Shown here: one piece after another, positions 6,813-63,810 of the stretch
Layout: each line of letters starts with the position of its first letter
Numbering within the stretch: position 1 is the first letter of the stretch
Assembly: GCA_964016885.1 (NCBI GenBank)
Contig: OZ024741.1
Location: 137,268,001 to 137,332,000 of the forward strand
DNA from: Eledone cirrhosa
Lineage: Eukaryota
Length of the DNA: 64,000 nt
Direction: 5' to 3'
Translations under genes and position numbers: made by a program
Notes under the pieces: model-generated
What the model saw: only the letters and a program-made list of their open reading frames with translations
The model's database searches: none
Told to the model about the DNA's origin: nothing

Positions 6813-7316
6813 ATCATAACACAAAAATGCGTAGAAATATAGTTATACATGCATGCATAAATACAACTCTAATACATATAAACACACATATGTGTTTCGA
6901 AAACGGAGAATGCATGCACGAATATGTACACAGACACACATACACATACACATACACATACACATACACAAACACACACATACATATATACAAAGACACA
7001 CCTACACTCACACACTCTCACACACAAATATATATCTATGTATACAAAAATACACACATAAAGGCACACATACACACACGCACACTCTCATATTTCTCAA
7101 TTTCTTTTCCATATATATATATATATATATATATATATATATATATATATATATATATATATATATATATATATATATATATATATATATATATATATAT
7201 ATATATATATATATATATAGTGGTGGAACACTGGAAGGTAATATCCGTAGTGGTAGAGCACTCAGTCCATGGGCCGAGTTAGGTAGAAGTGGTTACACAA
7301 CAGTTAGTTCACCATA

Positions 7317-7356
7317 CCGAGAACAATTGTTTCACATTAGCGGATCCTCAGCTCGG
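7317..7356 (-). ncRNA. Minimal hammerhead ribozyme in the PLE 3' UTR
   Basis: ccgag-CTGAGGA-tccgctaatgt-GAAA-caattg-TT-ctcgg. Perfect stem I and palindromic stem III; stem II is weak. Confidence 0.75.
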
Positions 7357-7518
7357 AATGGGCATGGTTATAGGAACAGGAAGGACAACCGTACGAACGC
7401 TCATGCGCAGAAACCCGGTCACTTCACACAGGCAATACTAGACTGCGTGCGAGAGGTGTAAGGGATATAACTGCGAAAGTCCGAAAAGTTTTTAGGTTTA
7501 AAATTAAATTACAAAGAA

Positions 7519-9336
7519 TCAGTCCGGGGCCTTGTAGTTATGCAATAGGTGTTTGGCGACGTGTGGACAACGTGTGAAAAATTCATTTCTCGTGTTTAGA
7601 CAATCACTATTGCGTAATCTCTTTAGAATAGTTATTCGTTCGTCAATACATAAGCCACACGTCGGATTTCCCCTTGCGTATGGCTTGGACTTAGTGATGG
7701 CTTTCCATTGAATGGAGTAGTCTATACTTGAGTCCTTGAGGGACCATACGTGGCTCGCGAGTTTCGTGGATGAACGTCTGTCCGGGTACCTGAAGGTAGA
7801 TAGGTGGTTCAGGAAACGTTCCTTAAATCGGCCCTCCGCCATGCCCACATATGATTTGACTTCCTGTGGTTCGTTTGGTCGTTTGGAAGTGACCACAGTT
7901 TCATAAATTACAGCTGGTGTCTTGCATTGCTGTTGAAGGGGGCAAGCTTCAGGCTTACGGCAAGAGCACCCTAGTGGGGTGTTGCTCCTAGGGCTGCTGG
8001 TGATGTGGACCTTCATGTTCTTATCGCAGGAGTATCCTAGTTTAACTTTGTGTCGGTTAAAGATGGAGCGGTATTTATGACCTATGGGAAAGTGTCTATC
8101 TAAGAGGGCTAGAAATTTTTTTCCTACATTGGTTTTAACGTTGAGTGAGAAGGGAGGAGAGAACCAGATAGTTTGTCTATTGTTGCGCTTACTTTTCTTA
8201 ATGGTGTTGTTGCTAGTTGGAGAGTAAGTGATAGGTTGTGAGAAGCCGCTGTTAGTCAACGCCGTGTTATAGTAGGGTTTCGCCCTGTCGAAGATAGCCT
8301 TATTAGAGGAGAGGTTTAAGATTTTAGTACTGATATTATTTACGAAGTTTCTAAAAACAGTGGGAGGGTAGCATGTGTCCTTGTGAATGTAATTGAGTTT
8401 CTCGTTTAGCTTATGGAAGGGTCTGTGGGTGTGTGTGCGAAGGTCTAAATTAATGTCTAAGAAATCTACGCTAGAGAGGTTGATGGCTACTGTTATCCTA
8501 AGGCCTAACTAATTGAAGGTAGAAGCTAAGTCTTTTTTAAACCGGTCGAGGTCGTGACCAATTTTATGGCTCGATAAAGTCAGTCCATCGTCGCGGTATA
8601 TTCCCGTGTGGAAGTCCGGGAATCTAACACGTAATATGTCTAAGATAAATAGGCCAACCAAGTCACATACGTCAGCACTGTCAAACGATCCCATGGAGAC
8701 GTCGAATAGGTCTGAAGTTGTAGACTTCTTTGCCCAGGCTATTCCGTCGTTGAAGAGGAGGGTTTTCCGGCAGTGAGCGATGATTTCCCTGTATAAACCA
8801 TCGACGGTGGTATAAGTGGTAGCGAAGTCCAACGCTGAGATCGACGGGTAAAAATCGACAATGTCAAACTGTGTGAACTTCGCTTTTTTGGATTTTAAGG
8901 AGTTAAACCACTTAATTATGGAGTCGCTGTTCTCCCACTGGGGCAGGTTGGACTTGGTCCTAATGGTCTTAACTATGTTTCTAAGTATAGCCTTACTGAC
9001 TAGTCCCATATCCGTGCGTGCCGGCTTTATTAGTCTACATGTGGGGTTAGAAGTGAAGTCTACCTTGTGATCTTTCAGGGTGAGGAACGCCTCCCGCTTA
9101 GCTAGAGATTGTAGCTTCTTATCTACCTTAAGGTCGGCGGCAAGTTCCTTGGCTTCTGTATTAATGTCGTGGTAGGCCATAGGGTTATCTTTCTTATATT
9201 TAGAAGTAATAGCGTTATGGACCAGGTGGCGGAAAGTGGTGTTGTCGACTTCGTAAATATTATTAGTTTTGTCGGAAAGAACGAAGGTGTTATTAGAAGA
9301 CCTAAATTTCTTAATATCATTTCTGAGTTTCGTTTG
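7519..9336 (-). pseudogene. PLE reverse transcriptase / GIY-YIG endonuclease ORF with one premature TAG
   Basis: ORFs 8509-9180 and 7519-8259 are in the same frame, separated only by TAG at 8509-8511, and the frame stays open up to about 9336. Motifs: QFDIVDFYPSIS, SMGSFDSADVCDLVG, IYRDDGL, VDFLDI, CSCRKPEACPL, VIY...YVGM...FKERFLNH, CGLC...CPH (Nematis-like architecture, by recall). Confidence 0.9.
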
Positions 9337-9389
9337 ATATATATATACAATATATTAATAAATGGAAACTATATTTATAAAACCATAAT

Positions 9390-9455
9390 TATTTTATTAT
9401 ATATATTTCAAGGGCAACCAAGGTAAATCATGGTGCGCTTTCATCAGATAAAATA
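9390..9455 (-). ncRNA. Minimal hammerhead ribozyme (left arm)
   Basis: tattttat-CTGATGA-aagcgcacca...tggttgccctt-GAAA-tatata-TA-ataaaata. Confidence 0.8.
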
Positions 9456-62203: not shown

Positions 62204-62279
62204 ACTTCCAAATTTTCTTATGTCAACCAGATATATATATATATATATATATCTGGTTGACATAAGAAAATTTGGAAGT
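62204..62279. repeat. Perfect palindrome centred on (TA)n
   Basis: acttccaaattttcttatgtcaaccag-(at)n-ctggttgacataagaaaatttggaagt. Confidence 0.92.
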
Positions 62280-63109
62280 GAATGAGAGAGAGAGAGAGAG
62301 AGAGAGATAGATAGATAGAGATAGAGAGAGAGAGAGAGAGAGAGAGAGAGAGAGAGAGAGAGAGAGAGAGAGAGAGAGAGAGAGAAAATAGTCTCCACGA
62401 GAACATAAACATGATTCGATAAGAACTGTTCGTGACCAATTATAGTTTAGGGTTATATGACCCGGTTTAAACCAACAAACCTGACACCTTTTATACGTTG
62501 ATGAATTTGGCTGCAATAATGGAGGATTATAATTTGATATGGTCTCTCTAGATTTTTCCTAAATATTTTCCCACTCTTGACTAATATTTTTCATGATTTT
62601 TTTTATGTAATCTATATCTGTTATTTCCCTATGTGCTCCCTTCGTTCCCATTTTCCTTAATAAGGCCTGATATTTAAATCATTGCTATTCGTTTGATATT
62701 TTCTGACAGATAGTTTTCTATTTTTAGCAGAACACTCTCAATATTTTTAACCCGACCTCTTTTTTTTTATTGATCTAGTCTTGATAAATTATCAGTGAAT
62801 AGAAAACCTTTCTCCCATGGCATTTCTTTAGTTGAGTATATATTATTTCCAACAACTCTGCGCCAAACGTTGTAAAATCCTAGTTTTATTTGAAGTTCAT
62901 ATCTGCATTCATATTTTAAAAAGATTAAGAAGCTCCCCACAGCATAATCCATTGGATTCATGTGATTCATCTGTGTAACTGACCCATTTATTGAAACAGG
63001 TTGACTGTGTAATGTGGTTATGATGATCCTTTAAATTTCGCTTTTGGATTTTTAATTGTTATTTCGAAAGATATAAATTCTGCTATCCATGGATATAGCC
63101 AAATATCAT

Positions 63110-63288
63110 ACTGCTATGATATTTTCTCTATATTGTGTATATGTGAAAGTCTTGGGATTTACGTTATGCATCTCGATCGTATTAAATATTCCCAAAGCAT
63201 CTATTATTAGGAATATTGTTTTGATTTTAATCCCCACATTCTGGTTATTTCTATTTCCAGATATTTACTTTTGGATAAGTTCTCCACC
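63110..63288 (-). mobile_element. R4/Dong LINE C-terminal relic
   Basis: Minus strand reads VENLSKSKYLEIEITRMWGLK, resembling the EKLSKYKDLEIEITRMW motif of R4/Dong endonuclease ends. Confidence 0.6.
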
Positions 63289-63670
63289 TACACACACACA
63301 CACACACACACACATATATATATATATATATATATAAGTGGTATAATACAACAAGTAGAAAATATTTACTTATTTTTTTCTGATCTGATATATGTATGTT
63401 TATATTATCTAGTTTGTGTCGATACTTCATAATACCGACAATAATATCTTGTTTATAAAAGATGCATCTCTGTCAAACCTGATTATACATACACACTCAT
63501 ACAGACACACACACACACACACACACACACACACACACACACACACACACACACACACACACACACACACACACACACACACACACACACACACACACAC
63601 ACACACACACACACACACACACACACACACACACACACACACACACACACATATATATATATATAGAGAG

Positions 63671-63810
63671 AGATGGCTTCTACAGGACTAGAACTGTTTC
63701 ATTCGGGAGAAATCCTCAGGGCTTCCTGCAGAAGCCATTTCTATATTAAATATTTACACTCTGCTATGTATTGAGTACCTTACTTACTGTGGTTACTCCC
63801 GATAACCTTA
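63671..63810 (+). mobile_element. Fold-back mini-element, family E
   Basis: atggcttctacagga...tcctgcagaagccat hairpin, then ACTC tgc tat gta tt GAGTAC at 63758-63778. Confidence 0.72.

Follow-up and report, generated by a model that had tools for sequence, protein, structure and literature searches.

Two leader hairpins of Hydra-clade Penelope-like elements as a probable signal for both insertion ends

The window analysed here, a 64,000-nt stretch of the Eledone cirrhosa genome (assembly GCA_964016885.1, contig OZ024741.1, positions 137,268,001 to 137,332,000), holds one sizeable remnant of a Penelope-like element (PLE) and a series of short insertions, in which a small bulged stem-loop recurs. 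The remnant, of family A, comprises a 5'-truncated Hydra-clade open reading frame (ORF) at 7519–9354 on the minus strand, interrupted by an in-frame stop at 8509–8511, whose translation motifs are those of a reverse transcriptase (RT) with a C-terminal GIY-YIG-type endonuclease. In its 3' pseudo-long terminal repeat (pLTR) lie a type I hammerhead-like motif, recognised by sequence (7310–7362, minus; core from CTGAGGA at 7351 to GAAAC at 7329), and the stem-loop itself, hereafter hairpin 1 or HP1 (7258–7279, minus; a variant with a 1-nt bulge). The tail (7220–7284, minus) reaches from what we call the tail-less end, at about 7284, to the tailed end at 7220, and is followed by (TA)n at 7111–7219.

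Most other carriers are head-to-head insertions, made of two arms in inverted orientation. Family B supplies two of them, at 9340–9798 (plus; a tail-less and a tailed arm, HP1 at 9704–9725) and 55593–55924 (plus; HP1 at 55832–55853). Family C has three, at 26584–26760 (minus; HP1 at 26636–26661), 30171–30370 (plus; HP1 at 30293–30318) and 43900–44096 (minus; HP1 at 43952–43977), together with a short fold-back insertion at 48036–48181 (plus; HP1 at 48104–48129). Family D is found at 32508–32880 (minus; HP1 at 32567–32593) and 48434–48755 (plus; HP1 at 48664–48690), family E at 63666–63813 (plus; HP1 at 63758–63778) and family F at 46948–47476 (plus; long-loop HP1 at 47381–47428). A diverged insertion at 32949–33119 (plus; HP1 at 33049–33068) was assigned by eye as E-like, and element G, between two (TA)n runs at 43695–43845 (plus), bears a motif-like site without inner stem at 43722–43741. 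Two further tails with HP1 had escaped the preliminary description of this DNA: one of family F (55504–55604, minus; HP1 at about 55543–55590) and one of family H (41879–41981, minus; HP1 at 41953–41981). The family F tail meets the adjoining family B insertion (together 55504–55924) through a short ATATT overlap with no intervening (TA)n, as either a two-family co-insertion or a later deletion would leave it. A near-perfect 466-nt palindrome at 42660–43125, flanked by (TA)n runs, is similar to upstream sequence of family H and possibly consists of two tail-less arms.

These carriers had been taken for unrelated families sharing a motif with one autonomous PLE, a view that the genome does not bear out: families B, C, D, E and F each proceed into their own Hydra-type RT ORF, 40–61% identical among themselves and to A. 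Families A to F all encode RT and are therefore not non-coding retrozymes. Because B to F enter ORFs of their own, the short elements of the window represent sibling coding families in truncated form; six of the carriers are 5'-truncated ends of protein-coding Hydra-clade PLE families, and in two others no ORF was seen. The motif is thus an inherited feature of the clade, which could act in cis. For family H, an ORF was looked for beyond its second hairpin (see below) and none was found.

According to the accessible text of Craig et al. (2021, PMC8557442), the Hydra clade is characterised by a C-terminal endonuclease, DKT, a CxCX5C linker, CxxC, CxH, a hammerhead and (TA)n targeting. RT and C-terminal GIY-YIG endonuclease share a single ORF both in the family A window translation and in an intact 719-aa family C ORF. 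The former contains SDKTNN, CSCRKPEAC, CGLC and CPH, the latter YRDD with NVIY/AYIG, SDKTGN, CNCPDRSIC, CNLC and CKH: DKG has become DKT, the CxCX5C linker, CxxC and CxH are in place, and CCHH, judged by eye, is missing. Insertion is into (TA)n. Hammerhead core words were located in the pLTR by pattern, that of family C looking atypical; at the gathering score Rfam returned no match in the window, for hammerhead and motif alike. The N-terminus of family C reads RWR as against the RWK motif of the clade (the window copy of family A lacks this region), and its unit, with a long 3' untranslated region (UTR), measures ~3.54 kb as against a clade length below 3 kb. Pfam gave no match for the two window PLE pieces, and a protein search for longer homologues found none.

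The 3.0-Gb genome contains many close copies of the family A element, and family C forms 3.54-kb tandem arrays with intact 717–719-aa ORFs, which makes the repaired RT once proposed for assays unnecessary. These arrays have likely been active recently. Head-to-tail arrays (L238–L241; G000:C1:91.47 Mb and 437.2 Mb) hold at least four intact family C units of 3.53–3.54 kb, with an unusually long 3' UTR of about 1.2 kb. The top fold matches of the predicted family C model include TERT, DRT and retron RTs, the TM-scores for TERT being low (0.31–0.37).

All 13 motif sites of the preliminary description are present, with letters, coordinates and strands as claimed. Every one sits inside an insertion ending at a (TA)n run, which begins 35–65 nt downstream in 12 cases and 104 nt downstream of 43722. 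The strict pattern [AG]CTC-N6-24-GAGT[AG]C occurs 13 times in the window, above the background of 2.7 ± 1.7 (maximum 8) given by 200 local dinucleotide shuffles. It picks up 11 of the cited sites together with 41953 (minus), a real site missing from the original list, and 3800 (minus), probably a chance match, the nearest (TA)n being 466 nt away; the pattern skips 33049, ending in GAGTAA, and 47381, with its long loop and GAGCCC. Since the four 30293-type sites represent one family, the 13 sites amount to ~7 independent observations. When fold-back segments were defined without reference to the motif, in the window plus 400 kb, 13 out of 26 had it 7–14 nt past the end of the inverted arm; several of the other 13 carry motif variants or are microsatellite artefacts. 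The 2-nt bulge and the inner stem originally described stand for most copies and fail for 7258, with its 1-nt bulge, and for 43722, which has no inner stem. A covariance model built from 43 hairpins recovers 11 of the cited sites (4–5 of them in its training set) and misses these same two. The 7258 copy is atypical in another respect, reading GGCC as against GTCC/GGAC in most relatives.

The hairpin extends well beyond this genome. Relatives are encoded at 79 metagenome loci, 57 of which have a hammerhead-like core past the ORF; the motif follows in 27 of the 57, and in 25 of the 45 loci with at least 100 nt after that core. About ten motif-less loci stop, by eye, in (TA)n where the motif would begin. 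An upstream CTC partner accompanies 33 of the 38 non-redundant GAGYRC words found after the hammerhead in metagenome Hydra loci (15.4 in shuffles, maximum 24), and three of the five words without partner belong to hammerhead stem III. With a bulge of 2 nt, the inner stem has a mean of 2.76 pairs (0.63 in shuffles); other bulge sizes give chance values or below. Published Hydra consensi, compared by eye, contain a clear hairpin in three of six cases (one coral, two sea cucumber), nearly so in one copepod and not clearly in two. The hairpin thus appears, from these comparisons, to be conserved across phyla.

Its consensus is RCUC, a variable stem, a U-H bulge and GAGYRCU. In a MAFFT alignment of 43 hairpins, chosen by motif, 94.4% of cells pair, and 58 cells are changed on both sides, against 19.6 in shuffles (0/500 reaching this value) and at most 14 in slid controls. 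Five of the eight stem pairs covary and three are invariant: the outer pair is G-C in 37 hairpins and A-U in 5, the first inner pair U-A in 21 and C-G in 15. RNAalifold returns the same fold. The covarying, bulged stem-loop that had been suggested from the window alone is upheld by these compensatory changes, and the covarying inner pairs favour a form that acts single-stranded.

What the preliminary description overlooked is a second copy of the hairpin. Metagenome leaders often run in the order hammerhead, HP1, 60–75 nt, a second hairpin (HP2), 25–45 nt and ATG; full-length and tandem units likewise show hammerhead, HP1, 60–110 nt, HP2 and the start codon. If the window families are arranged alike, each should have a second hairpin shortly beyond the end at which its copies usually stop. 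Such a hairpin, its 5' arm 6–9 nt beyond that end, was indeed found in families A, B, C, D, F and H when the first 10–30 matches of each genome search for read-through copies were examined. Among these matches, HP2 is seen in B in 12/12, in D in 12/12 (a few with altered GAG), in F in 10/12, in C in 27 of 30 rows or 21 of 24 distinct loci, and in H, with a long loop, at 5 of 6 distinct loci; in A it was observed at L180, L193 and L200, again with a long loop. Some matches were counted twice, and the reversed-pattern controls, all 0, are weak in view of their family-specific anchors, so that the evidence is the identical continuation of the copies.

Element ends lie 5' of each hairpin copy. In five of six secondary matches, inverted copies of the family A 3' end break off some 5 nt short of the motif, which places the motif at the opening of the tail. 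Across 1.064 Mb of DNA chosen without regard to these elements, the window among it, 132 of the 149 (TA)n-flanked ends of families A–D and F fall 2–16 nt 5' of HP1 (63) or HP2 (69), mostly at 6–10 nt. Adding E and H gives 146/167, again mostly at 6–10 nt, with E scored against an alternative hairpin picked after the fact. The two top (TA)n loose ends of family C in contigs of a public run, which may come from the window's own sample, coincide with these two positions (326 and 62 contigs). In metagenome contigs with both copies, 6 of 7 informative 3' copies lose their match within about 5 nt of a hairpin, the exception being L120, and nine rows were uninformative, through contig ends or otherwise. 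Window tails measure 60–100 nt, and the distance from the HP1 GAGYRC to the tailed end varies from 35 to 74 nt, so HP1 is no ruler for that end. TA occurs within 8 nt on the 5' side of 40 of the 43 hairpins, and on the 3' side of 23. As most copies end a few bases before either hairpin, the hairpins likely tell the RT where to start. HP2 moreover falls beyond the sequence of nearly all insertions although it marks where they stop, which argues for a signal read in the template or donor, not in the target.

A donor could also be read as DNA, with an endonuclease recognising the motif, be it in a tandem donor or in an intermediate of integration, and cutting 6–10 bp upstream, thereby resolving the ends. 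The invariant core forms a near-palindrome (GAGYRCTC), the strand bias is non-significant, the Drosophila virilis Penelope tail is needed for endonuclease recognition of plasmid DNA (cited in the accessible text of Frangieh et al. 2024, PMC11167929), and the tail has been ascribed to endonuclease-mediated resolution (PMC8557442, in the text available). Duplex recognition would require none of the free variation of inner pairs with pairing kept, and the arms are variably 5'-truncated, as in reverse transcription; we therefore give this explanation little credence.

The two ends are combined in a regular manner. About 200 arms of seven families were found in 1.06 Mb of unselected DNA, with 59 head-to-head pairs; among the 35 with both ends classified, 34 are mixed, one is tailed on both sides and none is tail-less on both (p about 1e-9 against independence), and with a looser end class 48/52 are mixed. 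The arms of one insertion share subfamily letters (20.7 of 22 against 16.5, in 12 family C insertions), to which conversion between arms could contribute. Mixed pairs and matching arms would also follow if only HP2 started copying and the cDNA snapped back, the complement of HP1 stopping the second pass; such a course would equally yield the 12 of 17 family C junctions that are symmetric within 30 nt. It could not give a tail-less arm reaching further upstream than the tailed one, as happens by more than 30 nt (up to 1.5 kb) in 7/21 A and 5/17 C pairs, where the A loci were chosen for long ORFs or 3' ends and two rows are possibly one duplicated locus. These longer tail-less arms argue for independent cDNAs, another 23 tail-less arms have no detected partner, and snap-back alone is in our judgement very improbable. 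The 5' truncations of family C form a cluster 60–70 nt ahead of HP1, where the 3' strand of hammerhead stem II and a short palindrome lie; fold-backs of 130–200 nt resembling miniature inverted-repeat transposable elements (MITEs) are the outcome. Hammerhead cleavage was discarded as the cause of this cluster, the arms beginning 10–20 nt upstream of GAAAC (positions by hand).

A precedent for internal starts exists in another clade. In the accessible text on Poseidon PAc (PMC11167929), RT starts internally at two sites bounding the tail and requires RNA 3' of these starts; both target strands are cut and extended, and the hammerhead is dispensable. The likeness to the Hydra families would lie in the two start sites bounding the tail, the use of both strands and the need for 3' RNA. 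Poseidon differs in that its starts are in an AC-rich stem-loop inside the ORF, with no repeated conserved signal identified in that text. By analogy, each hairpin would dock the RT and place the UA-rich stretch at the (TA)n primer.

We thus propose, with a probability of roughly two in three, that the motif is the first of two leader hairpins in Hydra-clade PLEs, each likely an RNA docking site that positions the element's own RT. The hairpin position fits the preliminary suggestion of an RT-recognition signal, and the best reading of the data is that such RT-positioning RNA signals give rise to the PLE tail as well as the inverted arm. A transcript through a tandem junction would carry both hairpins, with the invariant CUC/GAG, the bulged U and the unpaired RCU as the letters read by the protein. 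The endonuclease would nick both strands of the (TA)n target, and each target 3' end would anneal to a short UA-rich stretch directly upstream of a hairpin, priming cDNA from within the RNA: initiation before HP2 would give the tailed arm, containing HP1, and initiation before HP1 the arm without a tail. Head-to-head joining of these two cDNAs, both 5'-truncated, would follow. That this amounts to programmed twin priming, in which one ribonucleoprotein on one precursor with two RT-docking hairpins serves each target strand from its own hairpin, one from HP2 and the other from HP1, is a more tentative step, to which we give slightly less than an even chance.

Alternatively, the hairpins might direct an RNA cut 6–10 nt upstream, by an element protein or a host nuclease, after which RT would start at the new 3' end in ordinary target-primed reverse transcription. 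Such cutting predicts the same two classes of genomic ends, and a hairpin on their 3' side could equally well be the mark of a cleavage point or of an initiation point. Poseidon, however, initiates internally on unprocessed RNA (PMC11167929, as far as its text is available), and cleavage ahead of HP1 would take away the template of the tailed arm, although the two arms share their source; we hold this route to be unlikely.

Several observations weigh against RT docking by paired hairpins. Seventeen of the 149 ends lie elsewhere, and 27 more arms, set aside in the mapping, lacked a (TA)n end. Fold prediction gives weak structures (z from -1.8 to +0.2), and 3–4 of 10 sequences fold otherwise; the sense-strand bias of G-U over A-C is just 7:2 (p=0.09), and the three invariant CUC/GAG pairs make covariation uninformative on them. 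Hydra-1_Obim has no clear copy of the hairpin and Hydra-1_Amil a weak one only. The HP2 loop of families A and H spans about 60–90 nt, and a genome search for read-through copies of element G returned 0 matches. The Poseidon template shows no GCTC/GAGCAC motif by eye, so that the precedent comes from another clade. Family E, finally, has tailed ends at the usual offset, but in its read-through copies only AGCACTCT and a different 4-bp hairpin stand in place of HP2; a first read-through pattern for this family gave 10 matches with no consistent HP2. Its lone word AGCACUCU or its GCAC/GTGC hairpin may set the start there. Family E is, in our reading of these copies, a natural mutant of the signal.

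The retention of the end without HP2 in family E would also suit hairpins that mainly regulate expression, as a promoter element or a translational operator 25–90 nt before the start codon, with ends falling nearby through TA microhomology. HP2 is a short way upstream of the ATG, and both hairpins commonly have TA next to them on the 5' side. AT-richness, however, extends over the whole of the leaders, and ends nonetheless cluster at two offsets in six families; we find this explanation barely credible. As to family E itself, copies at L348–L357 have lost the 5' arm of HP2 and carry the GCAC/GTGC hairpin at the same offset, and at L270, L271, L267 and L268 the tail unit of family E (HP1 and tail) is repeated in short tandem arrays, retrozyme-like but without hammerhead.

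Earlier work has established the clade, its tail and inverted arm, and internal initiation at two sites. Inverted 5'-truncated copies and a tail are common to the published Hydra clade and the window families, although published tails measure 30–40 nt against 60–100 nt here; the accessible text calls these features of the PLE cycle undefined, and its main text contains neither 'stem-loop' nor 'hairpin', some supplementary figures being image-only (PMC8557442). Non-LTR retrozymes are likewise short, hammerhead-bearing and PLE-derived, but they are tandem non-coding units, whereas those of the window derive from coding families by truncated insertion; 'tail', 'stem-loop' and 'hairpin' are absent from the available text (bioRxiv 10.64898/2026.07.22.740005). 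In Naiad/Chlamys, 11 of 15 matches of three 8-mers were seen, with no hairpin by eye, though line breaks may hide others. No description of the hairpin, its duplication, the offset rule or the one-of-each pairing was found in the open literature, with most subscription papers, Repbase reports, image-only supplements and Cervera and de la Pena (2014) outside this scope, nor does Rfam match the motif at the gathering score, in line with its earlier designation as a candidate undescribed motif; these four features are what we consider new.

We conclude that the hairpin pair is most plausibly a duplicated cis signal of Hydra PLEs marking both insertion ends. Related principles are familiar: in L1 twin priming a second nick primes a second cDNA, the 3' stem-loops of L2/CR1 pairs of long and short interspersed elements and the template-flanking elements of telomerase recruit or position RT through RNA structure, and hepadnavirus epsilon is a bulged stem-loop read by RT. 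The Hydra signal differs in that it is 3' of the start, need not be copied and is present twice, with both starts at fixed places. Template choice, the one-sided tail and the inverted copy are open questions for PLEs, and the motif offers exact mutations with which to address them. For annotation, very short (TA)n-flanked fold-backs resembling MITEs or parasites turn out to be truncated PLE insertions. Were the hairpin portable, internal-start insertion of a chosen RNA could be directed. Twin priming, if true, would supply the first sequence-defined signal to account for the PLE tail together with the inverted arm, a portable element of 25 nt setting an internal start, and telomerase-like template choice in the sister group of TERT.

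Three other remnants lie in the window. Another degenerate Hydra-type RT fragment is found at 20961–21215 on the plus strand (tblastn 2e-12). A broken non-LTR retrotransposon at 37191–39766 (minus), spread over several frames with an RVT_1 match of 8e-20, is unrelated to the Hydra families. A mariner-like transposase remnant at 29360–29995 has, judged by eye, a Mos1-type DD34D look.

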